Shown here one piece after another: positions 516 to 17,559 of a stretch of DNA of 64,000 nucleotides. Position numbers and translations under genes: made by a program. Source of the stretch: Candidatus Limnocylindrales bacterium (GTDB taxonomy: Bacteria > Chloroflexota > Limnocylindria > Limnocylindrales > CSP1-4); NCBI GenBank assembly GCA_038239115.1, contig JBBSFD010000012.1:3347-67346 (forward strand). Reading direction: 5' to 3'. Under the pieces are notes generated by a model. It searched no databases. It was not told the DNA's origin and saw only the letters and a program-made list of their open reading frames with translations. Position 1 is the stretch's first letter; every line of letters begins with the position of its first letter.

Positions 516-541
516 AGCGTGCCGCCGGTGGCGCGGTACCC

Positions 542-784: not shown

Positions 785-888
785 GTATCTACGGCAAGTC
801 GCCACCAGGTGGTCATCGTGTCCGATCTGCCAACCTCGAAGGCGGAGCGAGTCTGGTCGTCCGGCCTCGACCGGTCCAGACTGCCGAG

Positions 889-1788: not shown

Positions 1789-1914
1789 CGGGTCGGCTGC
1801 GCATGATCTCCGAATGGTGTGGCCGCCGCGGCGGGTTCCGGCGGCGGTTGCAACGATGGGGTGCAACAGTGGAGCCACCTCGGGTGTTAGACCTTGTGAA
1901 GGAGGACATCCCGA

Positions 1915-2412: not shown

Positions 2413-3508
2413 TCGATTCGACGCTTGGCTGGAGAAGGGCCTGCGTGACCTGGAGCGGGCCGTGCCAGTCGGTCAGTCGGTCGCCGGCAGGCTTGATCCT
2501 GCCACGCTGGTTCGCGTGTCTGGCAGGGGCACACGCTCGCTGCGCCCAGTAGGCTCCCTGATTGTTGCGGCCGTGGCAATCGTGATCCTGGCGATCCTCC
2601 TTCCCAGGTTCAATGCTGCGGTCCCGGGAGCCTCGCAAACGACCGCGCCGAGCCTCAGTCCGACCACAACAAGCCCCACGCCCGCGCCTTCATTCTCAGG
2701 CGAAGTCACCCACCAGCTGGGATCCCTCGCGATCGTGACCCCAACCAGCTGGCAGCTGATCGCCCCGTACAAGTGGAACGATCGGACGGGGCCCTTCCTG
2801 TTCGTCAGCAGTGCGGCTATTGCCGACCCGTGCCCGACCTCGAACCTCGGGCCGAAATGCATGACGCCTCTCGCCCAGCTCCCACCAGATGGAATCGTGG
2901 TCACGTTCTCCGGATTGTCCGCCACGAGTGGGCCGAATCCGTCCCCAATTCCGGTCGACGAGCCAGTAAATGGCGCATGCGCCACGATGCGCGGCGATCG
3001 CGAGCTCGGTGTCCGCATCCAGGGGTTTGACGTAGTCGCGTGCCTGCGTGGACCTGACTTCACCGCGAATGAAACCGCATTCGATCGGCTTGTTGCCTCG
3101 ATCCCGGGCCTGCCTCCGCCCCATGGAACAAGCGTCACGACGGCGTTCACCATTCCAGGGACTGGCATCACTCTGTCGCCGCCGGGCAACGTGGTCCCGG
3201 CAACTTCGAGCGACGCGGCCTACGGGCTTTGCCTGACCCCTGGCGGGGCCGCCTGCCAGCCGGGTCCGCCGACGAGCATCGTGCTTGCCCGCATCACCGA
3301 CACGGGATCCACGCTCGTCAAGCCCGGCATCCTGGTCTGGGCGATGGGCTGGATCGGGGTCACCACCTGCGTCTTCTCGGGCGGTGGACCACCCGGTCCC
3401 GGCAGTTCGCCTGTCGTGGCGACGAGTCAACCTCTGTGCGACGCGTACGACTTCATCGATGCCACTTCCGGAAAGTTCATCTTTGAGTCCGCGGGTCCGC
3501 ACAACTAG
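2390..3508 (+). CDS. putative anti-sigma factor / membrane-anchored Pro/Thr-rich extracytoplasmic protein
   Basis: Start (TTG 2390 or GTG about 2405) overlaps the sigma stop codon. Short cytoplasmic N-terminus, single TM helix (LIVAAVAIVILAILL), then a P/T/S-rich linker and Cys-containing exported domain. This is the usual position and topology for an ECF anti-sigma. Confidence 0.5.
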   Translation: MRSSPVTDRFDAWLEKGLRDLERAVPVGQSVAGRLDPATLVRVSGRGTRSLRPVGSLIVAAVAIVILAILLPRFNAAVPGASQTTAPSLSPTTTSPTPAPSFSGEVTHQLGSLAIVTPTSWQLIAPYKWNDRTGPFLFVSSAAIADPCPTSNLGPKCMTPLAQLPPDGIVVTFSGLSATSGPNPSPIPVDEPVNGACATMRGDRELGVRIQGFDVVACLRGPDFTANETAFDRLVASIPGLPPPHGTSVTTAFTIPGTGITLSPPGNVVPATSSDAAYGLCLTPGGAACQPGPPTSIVLARITDTGSTLVKPGILVWAMGWIGVTTCVFSGGGPPGPGSSPVVATSQPLCDAYDFIDATSGKFIFESAGPHN

Positions 3509-3662
3509 AGTCGGTGCTGCGGTCCCCGATCTCAGTCGCCGAGCCTAAGCATCAGGCGCAGAGCCCCACAGACGATTTGGCCATCGTGGGGGGTGCCGGG
3601 CCATTGCCGTATCGGTAACTTCCGAAGCCGGGATTTACATGAGAGGCTCGATTCTGTAAGTT

Positions 3663-4844
3663 GTGCGTATGAGCATCTCGCGGTCGACAACCCACCGAAA
3701 TGCCCCGGGAACGTTCGTCCGGGCGAGCCAGGACGGAGTCAAATATCGGGCATGGGTGCCCGCCCCCTTGCCCCCCACGTTGCTCTTCGACTCTGCGATG
3801 GTGACGGCCGTTGCAGATGCGTCGGCGGCTCTCGGCGAGCTGGCTGGTGTCGGACGGAATCTGCCGAACCCGCACCTGCTCCTTGGTCCGTTCATGCGCA
3901 AGGAGGCCGTGCTCTCGTCGCGGATTGAAGGGACACGGGCCACGATCACTGATCTCTACGCGTATGAAGCTGGTCAGTTGCCGCTGCCGGGAATGGAGGG
4001 AGATGATCGGGACGCGAGGGAGGTTCTCAACTACGTCGAGGCTCTCGAACATGGCTTGGCGCAAATCAAGGCCTACCCATTCTCCCTGTCACTTGTGGAA
4101 GACCTGCACAGATCCCTCATGCGAGCCGTCCGGGGTAGGGAGAAAACGCCTGGGGTCTTTCGCGTCCGACAGAACCTGATTGGGCAGCCAAACGCATCGC
4201 TCGAGACCGCGACGTACGTGCCGCCACCGACCATCCAAATGCAGGACTCGCTCCGCCAACTCGAGGCCTATGTCAAGGATCCCTCCGACGGGTATCCCAA
4301 GCTCGTGCGATTGGCCTTGATCCACTATCAGTTCGAAGCGATCCACCCATTCAACGATGGGAACGGACGAGTCGGGCGCCTACTCATGTCGCTGTTGACC
4401 ACGCATTGGAATTTGCTGCCCCTGCCGCTGCTTTACCTCTCGGCGTACTTTGAGGAGAACCGCGACCAGTATTACGACCTGCTCCAGGCCGTGACTGAGA
4501 GGGCGGCCTGGCAGGAATGGACAATGTTCTTTCTCCAGGGGGTGGCCGAGCAGTCGGCGGACGCGACGCTCCGCGCGAAGCGTCTCCAGGACCTGCGCGA
4601 AAGAATGCAGGAGGAGTTCGCAAAGGAGCGTGCATCAGCTTTGGCGGCACGCCTTCTCACCCTGCTCTTCGAGCGCCCCGTGCTAACTATCGCCAACGCC
4701 GCGGCGATGCTTGGCGTCAACTACCACAATGCCCGCCGACAGGTCCATCGCCTCGTGGAAGCTGGGATCTTGAGTCCGATACCCGGAAGGGGCCATCAGG
4801 ATCTTTATGCGGCTGCGGAGATCGTCGCGACGGTGCAGGACTGA
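3663..4844 (+). CDS. Fic family protein (AMPylase/adenylyltransferase-type), class II with internal inhibitory motif
   Basis: Canonical Fic motif HPFNDGNGRVGR (HPFx[D/E]GNGR). An upstream in-protein SRIEG matches the (S/T)xxxE(G/N) inhibitory helix motif. C-terminal winged-helix-like tail. Confidence 0.85.
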   Translation: MRMSISRSTTHRNAPGTFVRASQDGVKYRAWVPAPLPPTLLFDSAMVTAVADASAALGELAGVGRNLPNPHLLLGPFMRKEAVLSSRIEGTRATITDLYAYEAGQLPLPGMEGDDRDAREVLNYVEALEHGLAQIKAYPFSLSLVEDLHRSLMRAVRGREKTPGVFRVRQNLIGQPNASLETATYVPPPTIQMQDSLRQLEAYVKDPSDGYPKLVRLALIHYQFEAIHPFNDGNGRVGRLLMSLLTTHWNLLPLPLLYLSAYFEENRDQYYDLLQAVTERAAWQEWTMFFLQGVAEQSADATLRAKRLQDLRERMQEEFAKERASALAARLLTLLFERPVLTIANAAAMLGVNYHNARRQVHRLVEAGILSPIPGRGHQDLYAAAEIVATVQD

Positions 4845-5001
4845 CGGCATCCCGGTCTGCGCTGCGTGCGCCATAGCCTCTGGGCTAGAGACTCAACGAG
4901 AGACGCCACGCCACCGCACGGCAGGGCCCACACGATGTTGCTTTCGTGCTCGATCTGATCAATTGGTGTGAGCGTCCACTCCCGCTTAGGAGACCAGGTC
5001 C

Positions 5002-5934
5002 ATGTCCACTCCCCTCCTGCCTGCCCTCGCACCGGAAGACGCCCCAGCCTGGCAGAGCTCAGTCATGGCGTTCCTCGCGGAGAAGGAACGACGCTCAGGT
5101 TCGCGACGGACGGTCGAGGGCTACGCCCGGATGCTCTGGCCGTTCCTGAACCGGATCGGCTCGCCTACGCTGGTGACCCCGGCTCATGTCCTGGCCTGGG
5201 CTCACGGCATCGGGCTGTCGGGTCGGGAACCCTCCTCGGCAACGGTCGGCGCACGGATCGCCTGCCTCTCGAGCTATTTCCGGTTCTTGATCCGAATGGA
5301 GCTCGCCCGCTCCAATCCCTGTGACGCCCTCGAGCGCCCGAAGACGGTCCAGGCAACCGCTCGGGGACTTTCGGCTGATGAGGTTCGCCGGCTCCTGGCG
5401 GTCGTGCCGGACACCGTTGCGGGCCGGCGGGACCGAGCGATCTTGCTCGTCCTGATTCTCACCGGTCGCCGACGGGCCGAGGTGATCGGACTCAGCGCTG
5501 GAGACCTCAGCCTCAACGATGGGGTGCCCTTCTACAGCTACCGCGGCAAGGGCGGCAAGCGAGGTCGCCGCGAGCTGCCCCAACCGGCCTTCGAGGCGCT
5601 GTGCGCCACCGTCGGCGACACTGGACTGGAGCTCGGGTCGATGGAGCCGTCTGCGTCGCTCTGGCAGGCGGGCGCGGGATCTCGGGGCGTGACGAGCTCG
5701 ACGTTCTACTCGCGCTTCCGGACCTACCTTCGGCTCGCGGGCTTGCCGCCCTCAGGGATTCACCTACTTCGGCACTCCGCCGCGAAACTGCGGCGCGATG
5801 CCGGTGCCTCGATCGAGGAGGTCAGCTCGTTCCTCGACCATTCGAGCCTCGCGGTGACGAGCGTCTATCTTCGGCGGCTCGAAGGGGAGACCGATCGGAC
5901 ATGGGCTGACGTTGCGGCGGCGATCGGCCTGTAG
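5002..5934 (+). CDS. tyrosine-type site-specific recombinase/integrase (XerC/D / phage integrase family)
   Basis: N-terminal SAM-like core-binding domain. Catalytic region with RDRAILLVLILTGRRRAEVIGL (Arg I box), HLLRHSAAKLRR (HxxR) and terminal VTSVYL (Tyr nucleophile). Confidence 0.85.
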   Translation: MSTPLLPALAPEDAPAWQSSVMAFLAEKERRSGSRRTVEGYARMLWPFLNRIGSPTLVTPAHVLAWAHGIGLSGREPSSATVGARIACLSSYFRFLIRMELARSNPCDALERPKTVQATARGLSADEVRRLLAVVPDTVAGRRDRAILLVLILTGRRRAEVIGLSAGDLSLNDGVPFYSYRGKGGKRGRRELPQPAFEALCATVGDTGLELGSMEPSASLWQAGAGSRGVTSSTFYSRFRTYLRLAGLPPSGIHLLRHSAAKLRRDAGASIEEVSSFLDHSSLAVTSVYLRRLEGETDRTWADVAAAIGL

Positions 5935-5984
5935 GACCATCGGGGATCTTCTGACGAGGAAGCCCTGCCGCTACGCTCGGAGCG

Positions 5985-6763
5985 ATGGACTTGGACCGCC
6001 CAGACCCAACCAGCCTTGTCAGCCAAGACACCGACTCGGTGGCCGAGCCCGAGTCCGGCGCTGCTATCGATTCCGGGACGGCTGGCGGATCGGCTCGACG
6101 CGAGTACGAGCGGAGAGCCAACCAGCGCGACGAACGCACGAAGGCCCGCTGGGGCGGACGACTCGGTGGTGTCGTCCTCGCCTTGACCAACGAGCCCCTG
6201 TCGACGGCCGCGTGGGCCCGCGGAGCGGAGGGCGAAGAGAAGCTCGCCCGCGAACTAGCCGACCTCGAAGATGTCGTCGTCCTCCACGATCGCCGGATGC
6301 CCGGGACCAAGGCGAACATCGATCATCTTGTCGTCGCGCCTGGAGGAGTGTTCGTCGTTGATGCTAAGTACTACCACGGCCGGATCGCGATCCACGACAA
6401 GGGCGGCCTGTTCCGAAGAGATCCGCGCCTCTTCGTCGGCCGGCGCGACTGCTCGGGCCTGGCCGACGGAGCGCTGTGGCAAACGCAAATGGTGCCTCTG
6501 CGCTCGCGTCGATCGGCCGCGCGACTCCCCCGCCAGTCCCGGTCCTGTGCTTCCTCGATGGCGACTGGCCGATGATCCGGCCGCCAACTGCGTATCGAGG
6601 GGTTCGGCTCGAGAGCCCACGGTCGCTGAAATCGCTGCTCGTGAGGGCCTCCGCGATCGAGCGGTCTGAAGTTGATCCACTCGCCCGGCGGCTTGCTGCC
6701 GCCTTCCCCGCGAAGCAGCCGGGCGGTATCGTTGGATATGTGCCCCGGCGGCGGAACGGGTAG
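5985..6763 (+). pseudogene. NERD (nuclease-related domain) protein, apparently frameshifted
   Basis: VVLHDRRMPGTKANIDHLVVAPGGVFVVDAKYYHGRI is a NERD domain. The expected C-terminal continuation (ALASIGRATPPPVPVLCFLDGDWPMIRP...GVRLESPRSLKSLL) is present but in the +1 frame (ORF 6476..6763). The frame switch falls about 6485..6505. Confidence 0.55.
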
Positions 6764-6936
6764 GCGCGGCCGCGCGGCGCAGCTGGCGTGGGTCGCCGCG
6801 ACCCTTCCTGTCGAGGTTCAACTCCCGGCCCGATCACACTGCTCTGGCGAGGGCGGCAGACCGGACCAGATCGCACCCAGGGTTACCGGCCCCTTACCGT
6901 GCCTTCGGGCCCCCGGCTCTGTGATGCTACTTCGCC

Positions 6937-7338
6937 TTACCCCGGACTTGACGACTGCCCGGACTGACGACTGCCCGGACCCGCGTAAAGGTGATATCTC
7001 GGCAGCTCGAGGGATTCCCGCGCTCGCACATACGAAGAGCGCATGTGGCGATAGCCCGAATAGGTGGCGTCGGGGTGCGCATTATTCCAAGCTTCAAGAC
7101 GTTTCTCCCACGACCCGAGAGGGTTCCGAAGCACGAAGTTGACGAGCTCGATCGACCGACTGCCGATTGGCCGGTTGTGCCCGGGCAGGAGTTGCCGCTG
7201 TACCTGGCGGTATGCCTGAGTCACCGCCGCGACCGGCACCCAGGCGTCAACCTCCATGACGATTCGTACCCTGCGCCGGTCATCCTGGACACTGGTCTGC
7301 GGCACGCTGAGCATGAACGGCGTCGCCTGCGGGATCAA
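6937..7338 (-). CDS. hypothetical protein (133 aa), second gene of a two-gene operon
   Basis: Protein-like composition (WEKRLEAWNNAHPDATYSGYRHMRSSYVRARESLELPRYHLY). ATGA start/stop overlap with the upstream gene. The antisense ORF is less protein-like. No family recognised. Confidence 0.4.
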   Translation of the reverse strand: MIPQATPFMLSVPQTSVQDDRRRVRIVMEVDAWVPVAAVTQAYRQVQRQLLPGHNRPIGSRSIELVNFVLRNPLGSWEKRLEAWNNAHPDATYSGYRHMRSSYVRARESLELPRYHLYAGPGSRQSGQSSSPG

Positions 7339-7943
7339 GCTTCGAGCACGAACGAAGCCGCCTGCTCGGGCTGCCAGGGATAGACCAGGGCGAGCTGCTC
7401 AGCGAGCTGCCGGAGCTCATCGAGTGGCGAGCCGGCCCAGACGTGTAGGTCGTACGCGATATGGCCGTTCTGGTATTTGAGTAGCTCCAGCGTCTCCTTC
7501 GCCTTGCCGTGATGTGGTGCTCGCGCCTCGTCGGTGTCGAGATACGCCTCTGCCTCATCCCGGCTCATCGGGGACTCTCGCTCGAGAACCCGTCGCCGAA
7601 AGTCGAGGACTTCGGAACGACCTCCGGCACTCTCCGCAGCTAATCGACTTACGGCCTCGATCCGGGGAGCGAGTGCCGCTGGCTCCACCGTTCCTTGCGC
7701 CGGCGCCGAGTGGATCTGGCCGACTAAGCGAAGGAGCTGCTCGAGGCGGCCGAATAGGCGGTCCTCAGAGTCGGGATACTCCCGACTCAAGGCCTCAGCC
7801 ACGTAGTGGTCCTCGACCAGGAAGTCCCAGGCGGCGTCGGGGATGCCGCGCCCGAGACGCTTTGCCATTCGCCGACGCAAGGAAATGTGCGCGTTATTGG
7901 TTTGCACAACTCGCACTCTAGTCTCCGGGCGTCTAGCCAACAA
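7335..7943 (-). CDS. hypothetical protein (about 180-202 aa), first gene of a two-gene operon
   Basis: Non-repetitive acidic/helical sequence (AWDFLVEDHYVAEALSREYPDSEDRLFGRLEQLLRLVG...LELLKYQNGHIAYDLHVWAGSPLDELRQLAEQLALVYPW). No family recognised. Start uncertain (alternative M at residue 26). Confidence 0.4.
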   Translation of the reverse strand: MLARRPETRVRVVQTNNAHISLRRRMAKRLGRGIPDAAWDFLVEDHYVAEALSREYPDSEDRLFGRLEQLLRLVGQIHSAPAQGTVEPAALAPRIEAVSRLAAESAGGRSEVLDFRRRVLERESPMSRDEAEAYLDTDEARAPHHGKAKETLELLKYQNGHIAYDLHVWAGSPLDELRQLAEQLALVYPWQPEQAASFVLEA

Positions 7944-8014
7944 GAGCTGACGATCGGACGGACCTCGGCGATATGCGAGACCTCACATCGCTTCAACCTT
8001 GCTACGCGCACACG

Positions 8015-8066
8015 CATAGCAACGAGCTCTCTCTAGCAACCCTCCTCCAAGAAAGAGGTTGCTAGT
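8015..8066. promoter_or_regulatory. TAGCAAC repeat cluster: two direct copies plus a 9-bp inverted repeat CTAGCAACC(N15)GGTTGCTAG in a divergent promoter region
   Basis: Seen directly: catAGCAACgag, ctcTAGCAACcc, then GGTTGCTAG overlapping the TTG start of the 8059 gene. The region is locally lower in GC and sits between divergent operons 7943<- and ->8059. Confidence 0.35.
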
Positions 8067-8550
8067 GCTACGAGCAGCACCAAGGCGTCTGTCTAGGTCG
8101 GAGGTCCAGGCGCGGGTCGAGGCGGCGCCGGACTTCGTCGCGGGCTGGATCGCCGGACCGGAGCTCGACCAGCTCGTGGCGGGCTACGAGGCGATCACCG
8201 GCGTCAGAGTCCGGTCGTTCCGGAAGCGCGACCTCATCGCCGCGACCTCCCGCACGTGGGGCCCGCTCTTCCTCGACGCTCTTCAGCGGCGACTCGCCGA
8301 GAGCGGCACCGAGACGAACCTCCTGGCCGACTTGCGTTCAGGACCGCCGCGATCAGCGGTCTCCGTGCGCCACATCCATCCCGAAGCGCACTGGTCCTGC
8401 CCGTGCGCCGAGGAGAGTCTGCTTACAGACGTGATCTACTGCGCGGCTCATCGCCCACTGTTCGATCCGACCTCGAAGCGACGCTACGATCGCCATCCTT
8501 CGAACCCGGCGGCCGCCCGATTCTTCCCCGGTGCAGGTGGCTCGGGATGA
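8059..8550 (+). CDS. hypothetical protein, first gene of the recombinase operon
   Basis: ORF with His/Cys cluster HPEAHWSCPCAEESLLTDVIYCAAH. Its stop overlaps the start of the next ORF (ATGA at 8547-8550). Confidence 0.4.
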   Translation: MLVLRAAPRRLSRSEVQARVEAAPDFVAGWIAGPELDQLVAGYEAITGVRVRSFRKRDLIAATSRTWGPLFLDALQRRLAESGTETNLLADLRSGPPRSAVSVRHIHPEAHWSCPCAEESLLTDVIYCAAHRPLFDPTSKRRYDRHPSNPAAARFFPGAGGSG

Positions 8551-8708
8551 CCGTCGCGACCGAACCTCTGCCAATCCACCGGCCGGCGACCGTGGCTGAG
8601 TCTGCCTCCGACGCGCTCGAGGCGCGGCTTGCCGACTGGCTCGCGGCTGTTGCCCAGGAGGCGATCGCGCCACCGCTGCCGCCCGATGGATTCGAAGAGC
8701 CCATATGA
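8547..8708 (+). CDS. small hypothetical protein (53 aa); possible recombination directionality factor or accessory protein
   Basis: MTVATEPLPIHRPATVAESASDALEARLADWLAAVAQEAIAPPLPPDGFEEPI. ATGA overlaps at both ends (with 8059..8550 and with the serine recombinase at 8705). Below the 60-aa cutoff of the ORF track as an independent ORF. Confidence 0.3.
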   Translation: MTVATEPLPIHRPATVAESASDALEARLADWLAAVAQEAIAPPLPPDGFEEPI

Positions 8709-10198
8709 CCGTTGCAATCGCGGCCGAACCACGCATTCATGGACGGGTGAGCCAGCACCTGATCTACGTCCGCCGCTCGTACAAGGAGGCGACGGCCGCC
8801 GACGTGAGCGACGAGATGCAAGAAGCTGCCTGTCGAGCGCTCCTGCCAGCGGGCGTCACTGCCCGGGTGATCAGCGACTCCGGCGGCCACCCGTCGGGCT
8901 CGACCGCCGCCCGGGACGGCTACCAGGCGCTCCTGCGGGCAATCGCCGACGGCGAGGCCAGCGCGATCGTGGTCTACGACCTCTCGCGTCTGGCCCGTAA
9001 TGCCCGGCTGATGCTCGATCTCCACAGCCAGCTCGAACGCCAGCAGATCCCGCTGCTCGTGGCCAACATGCCCGGGGCGAGCTTCGATGGGGCCACCGGG
9101 CGCTACATGTTCGGGCAGCTCTGCCTCGCCGCGCAGCTCCAGCGCGACCTCGATTCCGAGCGGATGACCCGGATGCAGCACGGGCTGTTCGAGGATGGCC
9201 GCCATCGCGGGCATGATCCCTTCGGCTATCGGAGCCGACGCGATCAGTCGGGAAACCTGTGCCATCCCCGTGACCTCCTCGTCGTGGCCGAGGAGGCCGG
9301 GGTCGTCCGGCGGATCTGGGATGAGCTCACGGGCCGCTCCCTGGCCGAGATCGCCGAGCTGCTCAACCGCGAAGGGATTAGCCATCGCGTCGAGCGAGCC
9401 TGGACGCGGGAGGCGGTCAAGGACATCGTCCGGCGGGGCCGGATGTACCTCGGCTACGCGGTCGAGAAGCGCGGTCGAGACGAACGACGGGGCCGCCACG
9501 AGCCGATCCTGACCGAGGTCCAGTACGCCAGCGGGGTCGAGGCGATCGAGCGGCGACGACGCGTTGGCAACAAGCCCAAGCCGTTCCGCCATTACCTGCT
9601 GCGTGGCCTCCTGGTCTGCGCTTGTGGAACGAAGATGCGAGGGGAGGCCCACCTCCAGCGCGGGACGGAGCGCCGCTACTATCGCTGCCCGACCCTAGGC
9701 TGCCGGGCTCCCCGCTCGTTTGCCGGCGATCTCGAGGCCGAAGTCCTCGCCTCGATCGCCGAAGCCGTCCTGCCCGCCGCGGTGGTCGAGGCGGCGCGGT
9801 GCGAGCTGCGGCGGAGGCTTGAGACGCCCGAGCTCGTCACGGCCGGTCGTCAGCGCGAGCGCCTGCTCACCCGGCTTGAGCAGCTCAAGAAGCAGCACGG
9901 ATGGGGTGATCTCACCGACGCCGACTACCAAGCCCAACGCGACGCGGCCCGGACGACGCTCGCGGGGCTACCCGATGAGGACAGAGTCCGTTCGTTCGAT
10001 GCCTACCGGGCTCGGCTGTTGGCCCTACCCGAGGCGATCGCACTGGCGTCGCCTGCCCGCCAGGAAGAGCTCTGCCGGCTGCTCGTCGAACGGGTTCTCG
10101 TACGGGACCGCAGGGTCGAATCGATCGACTGGGTGCCCGCAGCACGGCCATTCTTCGAAAAACAGCGGGAGTGCCCCCAAGGGGATTCGAACCCCTGA
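8705..10198 (+). CDS. large serine recombinase (resolvase N-terminal catalytic domain + recombinase domain + zinc ribbon/coiled-coil)
   Basis: N-terminal IYVRRSYKE (catalytic Ser context) with resolvase-fold motifs (AIVVYDLSRLARN). Central recombinase domain. C-terminal Cys-rich LLVCACGTKMRG...YYRCPTLGCR zinc-ribbon. The last 27 nt overlap the 3' end of tRNA-Glu. Confidence 0.85.
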   Translation: MTVAIAAEPRIHGRVSQHLIYVRRSYKEATAADVSDEMQEAACRALLPAGVTARVISDSGGHPSGSTAARDGYQALLRAIADGEASAIVVYDLSRLARNARLMLDLHSQLERQQIPLLVANMPGASFDGATGRYMFGQLCLAAQLQRDLDSERMTRMQHGLFEDGRHRGHDPFGYRSRRDQSGNLCHPRDLLVVAEEAGVVRRIWDELTGRSLAEIAELLNREGISHRVERAWTREAVKDIVRRGRMYLGYAVEKRGRDERRGRHEPILTEVQYASGVEAIERRRRVGNKPKPFRHYLLRGLLVCACGTKMRGEAHLQRGTERRYYRCPTLGCRAPRSFAGDLEAEVLASIAEAVLPAAVVEAARCELRRRLETPELVTAGRQRERLLTRLEQLKKQHGWGDLTDADYQAQRDAARTTLAGLPDEDRVRSFDAYRARLLALPEAIALASPARQEELCRLLVERVLVRDRRVESIDWVPAARPFFEKQRECPQGDSNP

Positions 10199-10245
10199 TC
10201 TCCACCTTGAAAGGGTGGCGTCCTAGGCCTCTAGACGATGGGGGC
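10172..10245 (-). tRNA. tRNA-Glu (anticodon TTC)
   Basis: Minus-strand sequence GCCCCCATCGTCTAGAGGCCTAGGACGCCACCCTTTCAAGGTGGAGATCAGGGGTTCGAATCCCCTTGGGGGCA folds as a cloverleaf: 7-bp acceptor stem, D-arm, anticodon stem CCACC/GGTGG with loop CTTTCAA (anticodon TTC), T-arm AGGGG-TTCGAAT-CCCCT. CCA is not encoded. Confidence 0.85.
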
Positions 10246-10262
10246 CGGGCCGGCCGAGTGTA

Positions 10263-10982
10263 TCAGGGCCTCGTGGCCGAGCCGCTCGTCCGACTCGCCC
10301 GCGCCGCCGGGATCCAGAGGATCCCATCGCCCGGCCAGACAAGATCGACTTCCTTCAGCGCGGCTTCGATGAGCGCCGACGCGACCGGGAATGCGGACGC
10401 AATCGTCTCGGGATGCTTGGCCACGATCTCCCGATGATGCCTCGTGGCCGGCAAGGCCAGGACAACGTGGATCGTCCGATCCGCAAGGGCACCTGACGCG
10501 AAGGCGTCACGCTTCACGTGCAGCTCGCGAATGATCTCCTCGAGGCTGCCGACCCGGGACTCGACCTCGATGAGGACGGTGCGTCCTGGCTGGTCGAGGC
10601 GCAGGTCGACCGACATGCGGGCGTTACCCGGGACAGACGCCTCCACGGTGCGCCGCCATCTCCGGTCCGTCATGGCCAGGATCGATTCGCCGATCGCGGC
10701 CTGGGCCGCGTCGCGGATCAGCGGCCCGCTTTGAGCGTAGGCGCTCACGCGCAGCTCGGCTCCCAGAAGCGCTGCCGCGCGAAAGCGGATCGGCAAGCTC
10801 ACCTGTGGGTCGCCACGCTCGAGTCGGGAGATCACCGTGCGGTCGATGGCGAGGGCGCGGCCGACTGCCGCCTGCGAGATGCCTGCTCGGAGCCTGAGCG
10901 CGGCGAGCTCGATTCCGAGGCGGTGGGCCTGAGCGCGGGCCTGCCGATCGCCTTCGCGCATTGCCGTCCGATTCGCGACCAT
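10263..10982 (-). CDS. XRE-family HTH transcriptional regulator with C-terminal domain of unknown function
   Basis: AGISQAAVGRALAIDRTVISRLERGD HTH_XRE motif near the N-terminus, then about 170 aa of non-repetitive sequence. Confidence 0.7.
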   Translation of the reverse strand: MVANRTAMREGDRQARAQAHRLGIELAALRLRAGISQAAVGRALAIDRTVISRLERGDPQVSLPIRFRAAALLGAELRVSAYAQSGPLIRDAAQAAIGESILAMTDRRWRRTVEASVPGNARMSVDLRLDQPGRTVLIEVESRVGSLEEIIRELHVKRDAFASGALADRTIHVVLALPATRHHREIVAKHPETIASAFPVASALIEAALKEVDLVWPGDGILWIPAARASRTSGSATRP

Positions 10983-11280
10983 TCGGCCTCTGCTCCGATC
11001 TGGTGCCCGCCATGTGTGTGCTCAGTACATCAAACGGGCATAGACGAGGGCTTACCGGCCCTTGAACCGGCGATTTCGGGTCCCGCCAGGAGGTTGAAGG
11101 TGAAGGATGAGCACGGCCGAGGGCGCCGTGAGCGTGGGACGATGCCGAATCGATCGGCTCAAGGGACGGAGACGCACCAAAACGGATCTGAACCGTCAGT
11201 TTGAGGTTCTGAGCACACACCCCGGCGGCGCCGGAAACCACGCCAAGGCAGCCCGGGACGAGGACTCGGGAGCAGGAGGC

Positions 11281-11607
11281 TCAGCCTGGGTGGTAGAGCA
11301 GGCCCAGGATCATGGCCACGGCCAGCGTGCCGGCGGCTGCGATCGCGGCCACGCCGCCGGCAATCGCCATGAGCACGGCCCGGCCGGCCTGGCCGTCGCG
11401 GGCGGCCCGGTAGGTCGCGCTCGCGCCGCTGACGGCGATGATGATCAGGACGATGCCCAGGATCGTGGCCGACGTGGTCAGGAGGGGGATCTGGCTGTTG
11501 TCGCGAGTGACGAATGCGTAGATCGCCAGGGCGAGCGAACCAGCCAGGGCGATCGCGATGCAGACCCGGATCGGGGTGATCCTGGGCGGCCGGATTGCTG
11601 GGGTCAT
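11281..11607 (-). CDS. small integral membrane protein (3 predicted TM helices)
   Basis: Hydrophobic segments CIAIALAGSLALAIYAF, ILGIVLIIIAVSGA, LMAIAGGVAAIAAAGTLAVAMILGLL. 4-bp overlap with the upstream gene. Confidence 0.4.
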   Translation of the reverse strand: MTPAIRPPRITPIRVCIAIALAGSLALAIYAFVTRDNSQIPLLTTSATILGIVLIIIAVSGASATYRAARDGQAGRAVLMAIAGGVAAIAAAGTLAVAMILGLLYHPG

Positions 11608-12269
11608 GCGCCGCCTTTGATGCGGTGATAGACGGCCACGTTGTAGGTCAGCCGGGGCCGCGTCAGGGAAGCCACGATCGCCGAGCCAACGCTACCGAAG
11701 GCCTCGTCCACAAAGGCCCTGATGTCATCCATCGTGTCAAAGGTCCAGAAGGTGTGCACGACGCGGATCCTGAAGCCGGTCTTGAGGAACCAGCCATCAC
11801 GACGACTCCACGTCCGGTATTCGGGCAGGTCGCCGCGTAGGCCGGACACGTCATCCCGGCCGTAGTCATGGACGATCAGCAGCCGGCCCGCGTGGCGCAG
11901 GAGGCGCTCGGCCTGCTGGAGCTCGTCCAGCCGAGGATCCGCCGGTCCGGCCGGGCCGCTCGCGTTTTCGCCAGCCGGGCCGCCGGCACCGACGCCGCCG
12001 CGGAAGCCCGACCAGTAGGCCACGATCACGTCGGCGCTGGCATCGGGCAGGGCCGCGCTGCCCGCCCACGAGTCAACGACCGTGACCCGGGCGCCCAGCT
12101 CCTGGAGCTGCCGGGCGCGCGCGGATCCGCCGCCGAGAAGGACCACATCGCGACCCCCCACCGGGCCGAGTGCCTCGAGTGCGCGTGGGATCTTGCCTTC
12201 GACGTCGAGACTGCGGAGCAGTCGCCCGGCCAGCTCGGTGTTGGCCGGATCGAACGGGAGATCAGCCAC
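11604..12269 (-). CDS. class I SAM-dependent methyltransferase-like protein
   Basis: Gly-rich nucleotide-binding motif VVLLGGGSARARQLQELGARVTVVD followed by acidic-loop residues typical of the Rossmann-fold MTase. Confidence 0.5.
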   Translation of the reverse strand: MADLPFDPANTELAGRLLRSLDVEGKIPRALEALGPVGGRDVVLLGGGSARARQLQELGARVTVVDSWAGSAALPDASADVIVAYWSGFRGGVGAGGPAGENASGPAGPADPRLDELQQAERLLRHAGRLLIVHDYGRDDVSGLRGDLPEYRTWSRRDGWFLKTGFRIRVVHTFWTFDTMDDIRAFVDEAFGSVGSAIVASLTRPRLTYNVAVYHRIKGGA

Positions 12270-12310
12270 AGGCCGGGGAGTATAGACGCGAGTCGTGCGC
12301 GGTGGCAGCC

Positions 12311-13879
12311 TCAGCCCGGCAGGAGCACCACGCCGTATCGGGCGGGCACGACCAGGTCCAGATGACCATCGGCGCCCACGGTCGAGCCGGCCAGCCGGGC
12401 CTCCGGCTCATCGCGCGTCGCCACGACCGGGGCGAGCCGCTGCCCGGCCAGCTCGACGGCCTGGATCGTCAGCTCCGCGGCACCCTCACCGGCGTTGACG
12501 ATGACCAGGGCGGGCGGCGTTCCGGGCGGCAGATCGCTCAGCTCGTCCCATGCACCGGAGCGCAGGATCCCGATCGAATCGCCGGACGTGCCCGCGATCC
12601 GCAGGCCCCCATTGCGCAGGACCGGCTGCTCGTGGCGCAGGGCCAGGAGGGCCCGCATGTACGCCAGCGTCGGCTGGTCCCAGGCCGCATCGTCCCACGG
12701 GTAGGCCCGCCGGCAGTCCGGATCGTTGGCCCCTTCCATGCCGATTTCGTCGCCGTAGTAGATGCAGGGTGCACCGGGCAAGGTGGTCTGGAGCATGAAC
12801 GCCAGCCGGATCCCCGCTTCGTCCCGGCTGAGCAGGGTTCGGACCCGGGGGGTGTCGTGGCTGTCGAGGAGGTTGAGCTGGACCGCGTCCGTCTCGGGCG
12901 CATAGGCCGCCAGGACCGACACGATCCGGCCGGCCATCTCCGCGCCGCTCAGACGCACGATCCGCGAATACTCGGCGTGGCTGTGGACGATCTCGTTGTC
13001 CAGGTGGTGGGCCCCGGCATAGCCCAGGATCGCCTCGGCCAGCGGGTAGTTCATCGTGGCATCGAAGCGGTCGCCGGCCGTCCAGTCCGGCGCGACGTGC
13101 CAGATCTCGCCGACCAGGTAGGCCTCCGGGTTGACCGCCCGGACGCGCGCCCGGAAGGCCTGCCAGAAGGCTGGATCGGCGATCTCCTCGGGCACGTCCA
13201 GCCGCCAGCCGTCGATGCCGAACCTGACCCAGTGCTCGGCCACGGTCAACAGATAATCCCGGACCGGCTGGAAGTCGGTGTTGAGCTTGGGCAGGGCGGG
13301 CAGGCCCCACCACGCCTCGTAGCCGAGGCGGTCGATCGAGCTCGCCCCTTCGCCCGCCTGGCCGGGGGCCGGAATCGTGCGGCCGGTGTCCGGATAGGCC
13401 AGCAGCTGGACCCCGCCATCAAGCGCCGGGCGGTCCTCGCGGAACCAGTCAAGGTAGGGCGACGAGGCGCCGTTCTCGAGGACGTGGTGGAACGCCCAGA
13501 AGCCCCGTCCGGTGTGGTTGAACACGCCGTCGAGGACGACCCGTATGCCCCAGGCATGGGCCGCGTCGAGCAGCTCGCGCAGGGCCGCGTCGCCACCGAG
13601 CAGGGGGTCCACTCTGAGGTAGTCATAGGTGTGGTAGCGGTGGTTCGAGGCCGAGGCAAAGATCGGAGTGAGGTAGAGCGCCGTGATCCCCAGATCGGCG
13701 AGCATCGGCAGGTGCTCGGCGATTCCGAGCAGGTCGCCGCCCTTGAAGCCGTGGGTCGTGGGCGGGTCCGACCAGGGCTGGAGGTGACCCGGCTTGGGCA
13801 CCCGGTCACTGGCGGCGAAACGGTCCGGAAAGATCTGGTAGAAGACGGCATCGCGGACCCAGCGCGGCGTGTCGATCAC
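12311..13879 (-). CDS. glycoside hydrolase family 13 (alpha-amylase family) enzyme
   Basis: GH13 conserved regions: DGVFNH (region I), GWRLDV (region II, catalytic Asp), GEIWH (region III, Glu), LLDSHDT (region IV). Confidence 0.85.
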   Translation of the reverse strand: MIDTPRWVRDAVFYQIFPDRFAASDRVPKPGHLQPWSDPPTTHGFKGGDLLGIAEHLPMLADLGITALYLTPIFASASNHRYHTYDYLRVDPLLGGDAALRELLDAAHAWGIRVVLDGVFNHTGRGFWAFHHVLENGASSPYLDWFREDRPALDGGVQLLAYPDTGRTIPAPGQAGEGASSIDRLGYEAWWGLPALPKLNTDFQPVRDYLLTVAEHWVRFGIDGWRLDVPEEIADPAFWQAFRARVRAVNPEAYLVGEIWHVAPDWTAGDRFDATMNYPLAEAILGYAGAHHLDNEIVHSHAEYSRIVRLSGAEMAGRIVSVLAAYAPETDAVQLNLLDSHDTPRVRTLLSRDEAGIRLAFMLQTTLPGAPCIYYGDEIGMEGANDPDCRRAYPWDDAAWDQPTLAYMRALLALRHEQPVLRNGGLRIAGTSGDSIGILRSGAWDELSDLPPGTPPALVIVNAGEGAAELTIQAVELAGQRLAPVVATRDEPEARLAGSTVGADGHLDLVVPARYGVVLLPG

Positions 13880-13935
13880 ACCGTCAGCCTAACGGGCCGT
13901 CCGGGACGGAGTCGGCCCGGCTCGCGACGTGCTCC

Positions 13936-14301
13936 TTAGACCTCGTTCAACCAGGCCCGCACGCCAGGGGCCAGCAGGCCCCGGAAGAGGAGCACGGCAA
14001 GGGCGGCGAAGAACAGGGTGGCCGCAATCCGGGGCCCGGTCACGTTGAACGACAGCCAGGCCAGGGGGATCGCCGGCAGGGTCAGGGTGGCCAGGCCCAG
14101 GGCCAGGGTCCGGGCGGCTTCCTTGCGCTGGATCACCAGGGTCATCGTGAAGATGGTGTAGGCCAGCAGGATCATCACGATCACCCCGATTGGGCTGACC
14201 GGGGCCGAGATGGCCTGGTCGATCACGAAGCGCAGCGAGAGCCCGATGATCATGAGGATGAGCGAGCCGTAGACCAGGAAGATTCGAATGCCGTTGGGCA
14301 T
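13936..14301 (-). CDS. small integral membrane protein (4 TM)
   Basis: Start placed at the internal MPNGIRIFLVYGSLILMIIGL. The upstream part of the 258-aa ORF is Arg/Pro-rich and overlaps the divergent DUF3105 gene. Confidence 0.4.
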   Translation of the reverse strand: MPNGIRIFLVYGSLILMIIGLSLRFVIDQAISAPVSPIGVIVMILLAYTIFTMTLVIQRKEAARTLALGLATLTLPAIPLAWLSFNVTGPRIAATLFFAALAVLLFRGLLAPGVRAWLNEV

Positions 14302-14486
14302 GTCCCGCAGGGTCGGCTTAGCCGGCGGCTGCGCCCGCCCCCCGGACCTGGCTCGCTGTTTGCTCACCGCCTGATAATGCCATGACCCGCGCACGAGTCG
14401 GCCGGGGACGGTACCCTTGGCCGCCGAGGCCGCTAGATTGGCTTCATCGAGCCCTGTCGCCCCGTCGATCTGACCCTGAGGAAACC

Positions 14487-15575
14487 TTGAGCAAAGCATC
14501 CCGCCGCAGCTCACGGACCACCCGTGGAGTTCCGGCCAACCCGAATCGCAATCCGAATGGCCCGGCCGCGTCCAGCCCGCCGCCGCCCAGCGCGGCCGCC
14601 CCCGGCAGCGCCACGCCGACCGGTCAGGGCGCGAGCTCCGTCGTCCCGCCGATGGTCGTCTCGGTGCCGGCCTCGGGCGCCAAACCGGCCGCGGGCGCCA
14701 AGCCCGGCTCAACCAGGCCGGGCTCGACCAGGCCGCCGGCCAGCCGATCGTCGAGTCGCTCGGGCAGCTCGGGACGGCCCCGTCGGACGCTCTATCAGCC
14801 CTCGTTCTACCAGCGCCATCGAACAGTCCTGCTGAGCCTCGTTGTGGTGGCGATCGTGGCGGTCGTGGGCGCCTTCTTCTTCTTCAGCGCAACGGCCAGC
14901 GCCTATACCTGCACGACCATCACTCAGCCCCAGCCGTCCGGGACGCCCCTGCCCAACGGCTCGCCGGCCCTCGTCGGCCAGGCCCAGCCGGACATGGGCA
15001 ACCTGCACATCGCGGTGGGCTCGAATCAGCGCTACTCGTACTGCCCGCCGGCCTCCGGCCCGCACTACAACAACCCGGGCGTAGATGGCCCGATCCCGGC
15101 CAAGTTCTACGGCCCGGACGCCGGCACCCGGCCGGAAGGCTGGATCCACAACCTCGAGCACGGCGCGGTGGTGATCCTCTACAACTGCAACATGGGCGCC
15201 TGTACCGCGGAGAACCAGACCGCCTTGCAGGCGCTGACCGTGAACTTCCCGGATAGCCCGGTGTGCAAGGTCAAGGCTGGCGTGCTCGCGCCCGTCATCG
15301 CCCGCTTTGACAACATGCCCGAGCCCTATGCCGCCCTGGTCTGGGATCGCGTGCTGTATCTGACGAGTGTCGACCGCGACCAGATCCTCCAGTTCTACGC
15401 GACCGAGGCCGAGACCACGAACCCGGAGATGCAGTGCACCCGGCCGTCGCCCGGCCTGGCGCCGAGTGCGGCACCGAGCGGAGCCTCGCCCGCCGCCAGC
15501 CCGGTGGCAAGTCCGACAGCCAGCCCGACGCCCAGCCCGACGCCCAGCCCAACGCCCTCGGCCAGCCCGAGCTGA
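14487..15575 (+). CDS. DUF3105-family membrane-anchored protein with Pro/Ser/Thr-rich tails
   Basis: Conserved CPPASGPHY...WIHNLEHGAVVILYNC core typical of DUF3105. One TM helix (LLSLVVVAIVAVVGAFFFF). Start chosen at TTG 14487 preceded by GAGGAAA. C-terminal (SPTP)n low-complexity tail. Confidence 0.6.
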   Translation: MSKASRRSSRTTRGVPANPNRNPNGPAASSPPPPSAAAPGSATPTGQGASSVVPPMVVSVPASGAKPAAGAKPGSTRPGSTRPPASRSSSRSGSSGRPRRTLYQPSFYQRHRTVLLSLVVVAIVAVVGAFFFFSATASAYTCTTITQPQPSGTPLPNGSPALVGQAQPDMGNLHIAVGSNQRYSYCPPASGPHYNNPGVDGPIPAKFYGPDAGTRPEGWIHNLEHGAVVILYNCNMGACTAENQTALQALTVNFPDSPVCKVKAGVLAPVIARFDNMPEPYAALVWDRVLYLTSVDRDQILQFYATEAETTNPEMQCTRPSPGLAPSAAPSGASPAASPVASPTASPTPSPTPSPTPSASPS

Positions 15576-15577
15576 GG

Positions 15578-16480
<903 letters not shown>

Positions 16481-16484
16481 CAAC

Positions 16485-17558
16485 ATGGCCGAGGGGCAGA
16501 TCCCGGACACGATGCGGGCGCTGGTCAAGGCCAGTCCGTCGGCCGGGGCCGAGCTGCGCGACGTGCCCGTGCCCGTGCCCGGCGACGGCGAGCTCCTCAT
16601 CCGGGTCGAGGCGGCCAGCCTGTGTGGAACGGACCTGCACATCTATCGCTGGGACGACTGGGCGATGAACCGGCTGGGCGGCGGCCTGCCCCGGATCTTC
16701 GGCCATGAGATGGCCGGCCGGGTGGTTGCCCACGGACCCAATGTCCGCGGCCGGGGCGAGATTCCGCTGGGCACGCTGGTCGCCGCCGAGACCCACCTGG
16801 TCGACCAGAGCTGCTACCAGTGCCGGACCGGCCGCGAGCACGTCTGCGCCAACCTGCGCATCCTGGGCGTGGACACGAATGGGGCGTTCGCCCAGTACGT
16901 CGCTCTGCCGGCCCACAACGCCTGGCCGTCGGAGGGCTTGAGCGCCGAGATCGCGGCCATCCAGGAGCCCATGGGCAACGCCGTCCACGCCGCTTTCGTC
17001 GAAGAGCTCGCCGGCCAGACGGTCGTGGTCACCGGCTGCGGCCCGATCGGCCTCATGACCGTCGCGATTGCCAACCTCGCCGGGGCGGCCAAGGTCTTCG
17101 CCACCGACATCAACCCCGAGCGACTCGAGATCGCCCGCCGGCTGGGTGCCGATGTCGTGATCAACGGCAACGAGGAGGACGTGGTCGCCCGGTTGCGCCA
17201 GCTGACCGGCGGGGTGGGCGTCGACGTGGTCCTCGAGATGAGCGGCGCCGAGATCGCCATCCGCCAGGGCTTCGAAGCGGTCACGAACGGCGGCCGGGTC
17301 TCGCTGCTGGGGATCCCGGAGCGGCCGATCACGCTGGACCTGGCCAGCGACGTCATCTTCAAGGGACTGCGGGTCTACGGGATCACCGGCCGCAAGATGT
17401 TCGAGACCTGGTATCGGACCCAGGCCCTCCTGGCCCAGGGCCTCGACCTGACCCCGATCGTGACCCACCGGATCCCGTTGCGCGACTACCACCAGGCGTT
17501 CGAGCTGCTGGCCGGTGGCCACGCCGGCAAAGTCGTGCTCCTGCCGCAGGAGGCCTGA
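16485..17558 (+). CDS. tdh: L-threonine 3-dehydrogenase
   Basis: Zn-dependent MDR fold (CGTDLHIY, GHEMAG, GCGPIGL Rossmann) and the TDH-specific C-terminus GRKMFETWYRTQALL...GKVVL. Closely collinear with characterised Tdh. Confidence 0.85.
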   Translation: MAEGQIPDTMRALVKASPSAGAELRDVPVPVPGDGELLIRVEAASLCGTDLHIYRWDDWAMNRLGGGLPRIFGHEMAGRVVAHGPNVRGRGEIPLGTLVAAETHLVDQSCYQCRTGREHVCANLRILGVDTNGAFAQYVALPAHNAWPSEGLSAEIAAIQEPMGNAVHAAFVEELAGQTVVVTGCGPIGLMTVAIANLAGAAKVFATDINPERLEIARRLGADVVINGNEEDVVARLRQLTGGVGVDVVLEMSGAEIAIRQGFEAVTNGGRVSLLGIPERPITLDLASDVIFKGLRVYGITGRKMFETWYRTQALLAQGLDLTPIVTHRIPLRDYHQAFELLAGGHAGKVVLLPQEA

Positions 17559-17559
17559 G

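Follow-up and report, generated by a model that had tools for sequence, protein, structure and literature searches.

We analyzed a 64,000-nucleotide stretch of DNA from a Candidatus Limnocylindrales bacterium (Chloroflexota; GenBank assembly GCA_038239115.1, contig JBBSFD010000012.1, positions 3,347 to 67,346 of the forward strand), which is referred to here as the window. The focus was a gene for a large serine recombinase (LSR) that ends inside a convergently oriented tRNA-Glu gene. The genes at this locus were as follows.

8705 to 10198, plus strand: the LSR gene in its integrated (attR) form, 497 amino acids, with an ATG at 8705 and a TGA at 10196-10198.
LSR residues 20-158, 196-272, and 298-351: the Pfam domains Resolvase (PF00239, E = 1e-17), Recombinase (PF07508), and Zn_ribbon_recom (PF13408), respectively.
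10172 to 10245, minus strand: a hybrid tRNA-Glu(UUC) gene, called by ARAGORN (10171-10245, anticodon ttc) and by Rfam.
10184 to 10198, plus strand: the LSR codons D-S-N-P-stop, which come from the T-loop and T-stem of the host tRNA and replace the native tail A/G-L-G/R-T-R-P-L-S-D-D-x-x-L-A-W-Y-V/A-A-stop.

In addition to its Pfam domains, the LSR open reading frame (ORF) matched the PHROG serine-integrase family phrog_95 (E = 1e-63). A search of the Protein Data Bank with the single LSR sequence yielded no match; a family profile was required, and this profile matched the RD+ZD portion of the A118 integrase (positions 187-378, E = 3e-6), as well as the catalytic domains of the gamma-delta and Tn3 resolvases. 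In alignments, the residues of the catalytic-serine motif Y-x-R-x-S (Y21-V22-R23-R24-S25) were invariant or at least 90% conserved. An AlphaFold2 model contained long helices at residues 356-370, 373-397, and 403-419, C-terminal to the zinc ribbon, and their position suggests that they form the embedded coiled-coil. The Rfam tRNA model matched the minus strand over its full length at 10172-10245 with 65.9 bits (gathering score, 29). The LSR and tRNA-Glu genes overlapped convergently at 10172-10198, a 27-bp segment in which the LSR codons are C-P-Q-G-D-S-N-P-stop. An earlier reading of this DNA from its letters (the sequence-only reading) had placed the end of the LSR gene within the 3' half of the tRNA in a 27-bp convergent overlap; its coordinates and codons proved to be exact, and the tRNA that it proposed was called by both programs.

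To compare the C-termini of related enzymes, we searched a large protein collection with the LSR protein. This search recovered 373 relatives at an E value of 1e-20 or lower, and we compared the C-termini of the best 120. These proteins were 66-100% identical to the query (66-80% when the identical P0001 was excluded), and almost all had 495-510 amino acids. Their C-termini shared the sequence ...RPFFE(K/R)QRECPQG (...RPFFEKQRECPQG) and then diverged into the following endings.

87 of 120: DSNP-stop after ...PQG, identical to the window LSR.
9 of 120: ADSNR-stop (...PQADSNR-stop), a T-stem variant of the same tRNA-Glu.
2 of 120: read-through variants at the tRNA-Glu junction.
1 of 120: a frameshifted reading of the same tRNA at the tRNA-Glu junction.
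18 of 120: (A/G)L(G/R)TRPLSDDxxLAWY(V/A)A-stop, the conserved native tail (...PQG-ALGTRPLSDDASLAWYVA-stop).
2 of 120: ...PQGC..., a junction of the insertion sequence (IS) type.
1 of 120: a truncated ending.

A peptide derived from tRNA-Glu ended 99 of the 120 relatives, and 18 had what appeared to be the native end of the gene. Because 99 of 120 homologues finished in tRNA-derived sequence, the overlap in the window was far from a chance event.

A scan of one genome per species identified 50 LSR loci, nearly all of them in Chloroflexota metagenome-assembled genomes (MAGs) assigned to 'Candidatus Limnocylindrales' or 'Chloroflexia'. At 23 of these loci, the LSR ended in a tRNA-Glu(ttc) that was convergent to it, and the register was that of the window. 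Six further loci (L002, L003, L010, L011, L015, and L025) had the native tail and no tRNA, which is the attP form, and two of them (L002 and L003) had additional element genes downstream of the LSR in place of a tRNA. The attP-form DNA reads ...CAGCGGGAGTGCCCCCAAGGGG followed directly by CCTTGGGGACCCGCCCGCTG...; it matched the window through TGCCCCCAAGGGG and was different beyond that point. No attL was found within 10 kb upstream of the integrated LSR loci in these genomes.

The remaining junction types were recovered from metagenome contigs, which were scanned with the conserved right half of attP. Of the 71 loci identified, about half had LSR coding sequence to the left of the site and represent attP. 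The rest were attL; their left side was unrelated DNA that ended in ...TGG-T-GCCCCCAAGG. Read on the tRNA strand, the left side of attL was CCTTGGGGGC-A-CCA, which is the 3' end of a native tRNA-Glu with its encoded CCA, fused to a remnant of the LSR tail. One contig (L073) had an empty attB that read ...CTGGTGCCCCCAAGG-GG-ATTCGAACCCC.... In total, we counted 38-42 attP, 18-24 attR, 25-26 attL, and 1 attB sites, and consensus sequences were built from the unique sites (18 attR, 32 attP, and 23 attL, plus the 1 attB). A complete 5.1-kb element was present on a single contig (L057), with attL, an LSR that was 49% identical to the window LSR, and attR with tRNA-Glu; this element was bounded by the direct repeat GTACCCCCAAGGGG. 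Since attP, attR, attL, and attB were recovered as reciprocal hybrids, all four recombination sites were documented.

The arrangement of the att sites at the window junction was as follows.

10163 to 10204: attR, composed of the P arm CAGCGGGAGTGCCCCCAAGG (10163-10182), the central GG (10183-10184), and the B' arm ATTCGAACCCCTGATCTCCA (10185-10204).
10172 to 10184: a 13-bp block, TGCCCCCAAGGGG, which attP and attB have in common without a mismatch and which corresponds to the discriminator, the acceptor 3' strand, and the T-stem 3' strand of the tRNA, and to the LSR codons C-P-Q-G.
10183 to 10184: the putative crossover dinucleotide GG, read as CC at positions 61-62 of the tRNA.

The attP sequence, CAGCGGGAGTGCCCCCAAGG-GG-CCTTGGGGACCCGCCCGCTG, was an imperfect palindrome located in the last ~20 codons of the 509-amino-acid form of the LSR. 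A dyad scan of the 32 unique attP sites with 20-bp arms yielded a complementarity of 0.753 at the last GG of AAGGGG and 0.20-0.42 at every other center. In the consensus, 17 of the 20 positions of the P arm (CAGCGGGAGTGCCCCCAAGG) agreed with the reverse-complemented P' arm (CAGCGGGCGGGTCCCCAAGG). The central GG was also the right limit of identity between attP and attB: the 11 bp to the left were identical (TGCCCCCAAGG), and no identity extended to the right. Serine recombinases require a match only at the central dinucleotide, and tyrosine recombinases require an identical 6- to 8-bp overlap that straddles the center of the site. To our knowledge, all characterized LSR sites are cleaved at the central dinucleotide of the dyad. 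Because the identity between attP and attB stopped at the dyad center, the sites had the geometry expected for the LSR rather than for the Xer-like tyrosine recombinase that is also encoded in the window.

The target tRNA was not the same in all relatives of the window LSR. In Chloroflexota MAGs, the ORFs of relatives at 41-50% identity entered tRNA-Arg (CCU or UCG). Among relatives at 23-27% identity, those in Saccharibacteria MAGs entered tRNA-Lys(UUU), and the one in a Solirubrobacteraceae MAG (L051) entered tRNA-Leu(GAG). The distant relatives that read into or through a tRNA were at L049/L050 (~10001-11731), L051 (~10001-11668), L031, L034, L038, L041, and L047, and the tRNA was convergent to the LSR in every distant relative. 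Thus, the targeted tRNA (Glu, Arg, Lys, or Leu) tracks LSR phylogeny. One further locus (L035), with a tail of ...DDDPLEWYA-stop, resembled an attP form of the tRNA-Arg clade.

The picture that emerged was that the overlap is very probably the attR of an apparently non-phage integrative element, which was inserted into the 3' part of tRNA-Glu(UUC) by its own LSR. Our confidence that the LSR is the integrase is high, because the dyad center coincided with the edge of attP/attB identity, the target followed the LSR, and the tyrosine recombinase was often missing (see below). The sequence-only reading had offered attR of the serine enzyme as one of two options, and this option was borne out by the attP, attB, attL, and attR forms, by the attP dyad center, and by a target that followed LSR phylogeny. 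In the model that we propose, the free element would carry attP within the last ~20 codons of the LSR gene, and an LSR dimer would cut at the central GG, with the LSR presumably catalyzing recombination between attP and attB. To the left of the GG, the element would hold an exact copy of the last 11 nucleotides of the tRNA (positions 63-73), and the opposite strand of this copy specifies the LSR residues ...C-P-Q-G. Recombination would put this copy in place of the host tRNA 3' end, so that the tRNA stays intact and the genome-encoded CCA is lost. The displaced host tRNA 3' end with its CCA would move to attL, where it would be joined to the last 18 LSR codons. The integrated LSR gene would then read into the host tRNA, which would change the native tail (...TRPLSDD..LAWYVA-stop) to DSNP-stop and the protein from ~509 to 497 amino acids.

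If the cut is at the GG, the tRNA-Glu in the window would be a hybrid in which nucleotides 1-60 are from the host, nucleotides 61-62 are the shared crossover pair, and nucleotides 63-73 are from the element. The element would account for the discriminator, the 3' strand of the acceptor stem, and the remainder of the T-stem 3' strand. In all 28 tRNAs examined across the junction, 7 of 7 acceptor pairs were formed. Changes in the tRNA were accompanied by changes in the LSR: where the host 5' strand was GGCCCCA, it paired with a 3' TGGGGCC, a compensatory change by which the LSR Cys became Trp (EWPQG); LSR variants with Tyr (TAC) were accompanied by a G1.U72 pair in the tRNA. Because acceptor pairing and LSR codons changed together, the tRNA stem on the opposite strand dictates the last residues of the LSR. 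The native tRNA-Glu gene and all 26 attL sites encoded CCA. Most elements supplied CUC, CAC, or CGC after the discriminator in place of CCA, and a minority, those of the 'RW(C/R)PQG' type, did supply CCA. The window tRNA-Glu had no encoded CCA (A-CUCCCG), and the hybrid tRNA would thus rely on the CCA-adding enzyme. An 85-nucleotide tRNA-Pro(GGG) called by ARAGORN at 40085-40169 on the minus strand was atypical, had no Rfam tRNA match at the gathering threshold, and was probably a false positive; it was excluded when host encoding of CCA was judged.

Several findings weighed against this reading or parts of it. Probes for the tRNA 3' end and att core (36, 20, 17, and 13 nucleotides, with mismatches) found no attL in the window, and tblastn and regular-expression searches of the window found no displaced native LSR tail; the partial direct repeat of the tRNA that the sequence-only reading had proposed to look for was therefore not present in the window. 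With attL absent, the window alone did not support a complete or mobile copy. No circular (terminally overlapping) contigs were detected among the attP-form contigs examined, and some attP-form LSR genes were on contigs of ~100 kb; very long contigs with such genes were L003 (101,651 bp) and those that encode proteins P0118 (111 kb) and P0114 (64 kb). The unintegrated form of the element might therefore be a large plasmid-like replicon and not a small circle. No recombination directionality factor was identified. Finally, attB had only weak dyad symmetry, with a B' arm that was little like the P arms, and attP and attB were identical throughout the 13-bp block, so polymorphisms cannot locate the cut. 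Apart from their bearing on the free form of the element, the long attP-form contigs also had ParB-methylase, HNH, CHAT, and SLH genes.

The last of these points is the starting place for one alternative, in which the LSR is the integrase and strand exchange takes place elsewhere in the 13-bp block, for instance near the discriminator or at the AA within CCCC-AA-GGGG, so that little or none of the tRNA 3' end is derived from the element. The junction sequences were silent on the cut position, attB itself contained the small CCCC-AA-GGGG palindrome, and the perfect acceptor pairing of every hybrid would be trivial if the acceptor 3' strand were from the host. Our attempt to map the crossover with polymorphisms (U72, C71/G2, and T-stem variants) was uninformative, since attP and attB co-varied over the whole block. 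Because the junction sequences cannot place the cut, the GG assignment leaned on the attP dyad center and on what is known of LSR cutting. On the other hand, the attP dyad center was unambiguous at the GG, with 17 of 20 positions matched between the P and P' arms, which is where characterized LSRs cut. Moreover, the exact copy of the tRNA 3' end kept in the LSR reading frame is best explained if the copy becomes part of the tRNA. On balance, a crossover at 10183-10184 is probable, and a cut elsewhere in the block seems unlikely.

A second alternative concerns the state of the copy in the window and is best considered along with the far end and flanks of the element.

1 to 10184: the right-hand part of the integrated element, with cargo genes that include an XRE-like gene, a Fic gene (3663-4844), and a NERD gene (5985-6575).
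11246 to 20245: the conserved host chromosomal context on the tRNA 5' side, with syntenic tblastx matches to up to 20 loci, including the empty-site locus L073.

To the left of the tRNA, only the tyrosine recombinase and the LSR were widely common to other loci, and the remainder was variable. The GC content was 0.61-0.69 in the element part versus 0.68-0.73 to the right. With a syntenic right flank, a variable left side, and a lower GC content on the left, the locus had the features commonly seen where an island occupies a conserved tRNA. At locus L060, the homologue of window positions 1948-2388 was 8.7 kb inside the element from attL. By this comparison, attL of the window element is predicted to be ~6.8 kb to the left of position 1, for an element of ~17 kb. 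The expected pattern for this attL is TGGTGCCCCCAAGGGG[C/G]CTTG[G/A]GGACCCGCC; with the tRNA end, it is TGG-T-GCCCCCAAGGGG[C/G]CTTG[G/A]GGACCCGCC, followed by ...LAWYxA-stop. One weak attL-type match, at 240-275, proved on direct inspection to be ordinary coding-like sequence and was discarded.

The window copy could also be an immobilized relic in which attL was lost or decayed, the LSR was permanently truncated, and the overlap is a frozen scar. The missing attL would agree with this idea, and decayed copies were observed elsewhere: the LSRs of L018, L020, and L028 were frameshifted, an IS was present in the attR of L040, and the tail remnant in the L057 attL contained a stop codon. However, the window LSR ORF was full length, with family-invariant residues that could be listed by position in it, and the P arm at 10163-10182 agreed with the attR consensus. 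Most attL remnants elsewhere retained an intact tail-coding sequence. In addition, the L060 comparison provided a simple reason for the absence of attL; because the element evidently extends past the left edge of the window, a missing attL in the window was no refutation of integration by the LSR. A relic at this locus is therefore doubtful.

The other option raised by the sequence-only reading was that a tyrosine recombinase is the true tRNA integrase. The window has one candidate.

5002 to 5934, plus strand: an Xer-like tyrosine recombinase, 310 amino acids, with the Pfam domain Phage_integrase.

This protein had XerC/XerD-like matches, all of them under curated cut-offs. We surveyed the 34 loci in which the DNA upstream spanned at least 6 kb. 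In 15 of them (~44%), a tyrosine recombinase that was 52-81% identical lay upstream of the LSR on the same strand, at a distance of 1.7-9.6 kb. No homologue was found within 6-10 kb upstream in the other 19 of 34, which included all of the tRNA-Arg-clade loci, and the complete 5.1-kb element at L057 had an LSR match and no tyrosine recombinase match. That the Xer-like enzyme integrates the element into tRNA-Glu, with the LSR as a passenger whose att site is in its 3' end by chance, could draw on the conservation of this companion on the same strand in 15 loci, on an identity of 13-14 bp over the tRNA 3' end that looks like the att core of a tyrosine integrase, and on the targeting of tRNA genes, which is characteristic of tyrosine integrases (PMC4383910; PMC13626063). 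Against this, the enzyme was absent from more than half of the loci with enough upstream DNA and from L057, and the targeted tRNA varied with LSR phylogeny. The identity of attP and attB ended at the dyad center and did not straddle it as a tyrosine enzyme needs. The enzyme was also short and Xer-like, was below all curated cut-offs, and had no detected separate N-terminal arm-binding domain. It is therefore highly improbable that the tyrosine recombinase integrates the element; it is a frequent but dispensable companion of the LSR, with multimer resolution or a second integration route as possible roles. As for the idea that the overlap arose by chance or through faulty ORF calling, with the true LSR stop upstream of the tRNA, it had no point in its favor and was refuted by the lack of an in-frame stop before 10196 and by a frame through the junction that was kept in 99 of 120 homologues, which leaves it a negligible chance.

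Whether the element is a phage was judged from database searches. In IMG/VR, the attP motif had 0 matches and the LSR profile had 0 relatives; PHROG matches were limited to the two recombinases, with no matches to phage structural proteins. Because of these results, the element is probably a non-phage integrative element. A Pfam scan of the window's 10 kb of element detected no Tra or Rep genes, and among the loci an AAA_25 domain was present only in L002.

According to the integration model, 18 residues after ...PQG are exchanged for DSNP. We examined constraints on the native tail in 38 distinct tail sequences. Tail codons 1-8 (GGG GCC TTG GGG ACC CGC CCG CTG) were near-invariant DNA with no synonymous change and corresponded to the P' arm. 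For tail codons 14-19 (L-A-W-Y-V/A-A), the protein sequence was conserved and the codons were free, with five Leu codons and three Ala codons in use. Since amino acids were kept while codons varied, the LAWYxA tail is a selected peptide motif and more than a shadow of the DNA site. In an AlphaFold2 model of the protein with the native tail, the last confident element was a beta-hairpin at 459-474, residues 481-509 had a predicted local distance difference test (pLDDT) score below 50, and a short terminal helix covered LAWYVA. Judging from this model, the tail swap should leave the fold undisturbed but take away a short motif. The tail ORF was intact in most attL remnants, as expected if excision restores the LSR gene. 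We infer that the tail swap may have a functional consequence, such as a role in directionality control.

One candidate for an accessory protein was a small ORF next to the LSR gene.

8547 to 8708, plus strand: a small ORF, with a gene call in L001; its stop and the start codon of the LSR overlap in an ATGA sequence.

The motif RLAxWLAxVxxEA was present in the LSR-abutting ORF of all 14 elements in which such an ORF was detected, with pairwise BLASTP E values down to 1e-15; the ORF had no Pfam or PHROG match. We consider it a candidate accessory or directionality factor.

Taken together, these features allow a speculative and rather unlikely scenario in which the tail swap is a directionality or commitment switch, and the clade has been repeatedly retargeted among tRNAs (Glu, Arg, Lys, and Leu) by rewriting of its last codons. 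If this were true, the 509-amino-acid form with the acidic-LAWYxA tail would be competent for integration, and the 497-amino-acid form would be altered, for example, unable to re-integrate. The 497-amino-acid form might excise the element only with the small upstream factor, and excision would rebuild the gene. In the same scenario, some members may regenerate an attB-like site, which would lead to cassette-like tandem arrays at tRNA-Glu (L073, L074, and L080).

Arrays of this kind were in fact among the att sites. They consisted of 2-4 attL-like units, CTGGTGCCCCCAAGGGG-GCTTGGGGACCCGCCCACCAACGGATT, in tandem with a spacing of 0.5-3.4 kb, at the following positions.

L073, reverse strand: 2515, 4257, and 6611.
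L074: 1293, 1845, and 3543.
L080: 1181, 4555, 5661, and 6563.
L120: 6478.

The units had a distinct P' subtype that was linked to an LSR in L059, and the L073 array terminated at an intact native tRNA-Glu with CCA. One possibility is that these arrays, which lack an attR-type tRNA, are LSR-less cassettes with a left arm that mimics attB.

A second side observation concerned the two ...PQGC... endings (L019 and L040), which were considered as evidence of an alternative attB. This idea was rejected, because a 1.3-kb IS with an rve transposase sits in attR between the end of the LSR gene and tRNA-Glu (L040:10341-11660; also L019:11483-11506; proteins P0053 and P0059). The IS encodes a 400-amino-acid transposase with rve, rve_3, and helix-turn-helix (HTH) domains; its ends are TGTCTGACTCC... 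and ...GACTCAAGACA, and a duplicated GGTGTGCCCCCAAGGG borders it on both sides. In L109 (~2250-2300), the same end of the IS was next to an att core that continued into a P' arm, which suggests that the IS favors the palindromic att core.

Other features of the window were as follows.

10246 to 11245: a stretch of ~1 kb on the 5' (host) side of the tRNA with an HTH_31/XRE-type gene (10263-10982, minus strand), common only to L040.
10999 to 11035 and 11199 to 11235: a 37-nucleotide imperfect inverted repeat at the edge of the 10246-11245 stretch.
6949 to 6980: a perfect tandem duplication of a 16-nucleotide unit (TGACGACTGCCCGGAC, twice) in the variable region of the element.
53098 to 53180, plus strand: a c-di-GMP-II riboswitch aptamer, with an Rfam score of 54.3 bits that is barely above the gathering score of 53.5.

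The 10246-11245 stretch may be a second small variable insertion. The riboswitch match was in a stretch of lower GC content at 51-54 kb (0.62 versus ~0.70).

The implications of the tRNA-Glu junction extend beyond this window. A coherent LSR clade at tRNA 3' ends, with hundreds of members that are mainly in uncultured Chloroflexota, is an exception to the generalization that tRNA genes are the territory of tyrosine integrases. It is also a case of dual coding, since a single DNA segment serves as an att half-site, as the 3' end of a tRNA, and as the codons for an enzyme's C-terminus. The Glu/Arg/Lys/Leu series could reveal how the site specificity of serine integrases evolves, and the defined attP/attB pairs, which are directed against a highly conserved target, are potential reagents. 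The tail swap and the loss of the encoded CCA offer hypotheses on directionality control and on the cost to the host.

The sequence-only reading had noted that tRNA targeting by LSRs is seldom documented, and the precedents that we found were indeed few. Eight Mycobacterium integrative and conjugative elements of the actinomycete type (AICEs) have serine integrases directed at a single tRNA-Leu gene (Ghinet et al. 2011, PMC3218068; also Bordeleau et al. 2012, PMC3429521), and the authors explicitly termed tRNA targeting by serine integrases rare, with the small serine recombinase of phiRSM1 at tRNA-Ser cited as the sole earlier case (PMC3218068). As far as their published description goes, these AICEs are like the window element in that a large serine integrase of an integrative element is tied to a specific tRNA gene. 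In Solirubrobacteraceae (Actinomycetota), moreover, LSRs distantly related to the one in the window read into a tRNA-Leu(GAG) gene. The differences are in the host (Chloroflexota versus Actinomycetota), in the target (tRNA-Glu), and in the conjugation genes, none of which were seen here. The passages on the AICEs available to us, which allow a comparison by description only, describe no attP in an integrase ORF, no tail swap, and no CCA loss. The filamentous Ralstonia phage phiRSM1 targets the 3' end of tRNA-Ser (Askora et al. 2011, via PMC3218068). As summarized there, its enzyme also is a serine-family recombinase at a tRNA 3' end; unlike the window LSR, it is a small resolvase-like protein that is without the large-LSR recombinase and zinc-ribbon domains.

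The other half of the arrangement also has a precedent. In the streptococcal integrative and conjugative elements (ICEs) that target rumA with a single serine integrase, the att site is inside the integrase gene, the 3' ends are reciprocally exchanged, and the excised and integrated forms of the integrase differ in length and C-terminus (Ambroset et al. 2016, PMC4701971). The window element is like the rumA ICEs in having att within a serine integrase gene and an exchanged C-terminus. The rumA target, however, is protein-coding and altered, whereas the tRNA targeted here is precisely restored. Because of this difference, the integrase codons in our system are held to a sequence whose opposite strand is the 3' end of a tRNA.

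The same two features are combined in a tyrosine integrase. In myxophage Mx8 (intP/intX), attP reportedly is within the tyrosine int gene, attB is at the 3' end of tRNA-Asp, and the C-terminus is changed on integration. Mx8 thus resembles the window LSR in its attP within the integrase gene, its tRNA 3' target, and its altered C-terminus; it differs in its tyrosine enzyme, in its mechanism, and in a far larger C-terminal replacement. In the rumA ICE paper, Mx8 is cited as the tyrosine-integrase analogue of the att-in-integrase arrangement (PMC4701971). More generally, tRNA islands of tyrosine integrases (Williams 2002; Islander, PMC4383910) are like the window element in that an element copy restores the tRNA, a displaced fragment marks the far end, and the integrase adjoins the tRNA. 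They are unlike it in their enzyme family, and in our case the identity block is one-sided and the element copy is without the native CCA.

In large surveys of serine integrases, the stress has been on targets that encode proteins; Durrant et al. 2022 does not use the word 'tRNA' at all (0 occurrences), and in the ProBord study it was tyrosine integrases that preferred RNA loci. No published account turned up of the Chloroflexota family, of one DNA segment coding for both an integrase tail and a tRNA 3' end, or of tRNA targets switching across a clade. Of the two serine-integrase precedents, tRNA targeting and an att site in the integrase gene, neither joins both features. The arrangement at the tRNA-Glu gene is thus rare but partly precedented, and here it marks a large undescribed family in the Chloroflexota.

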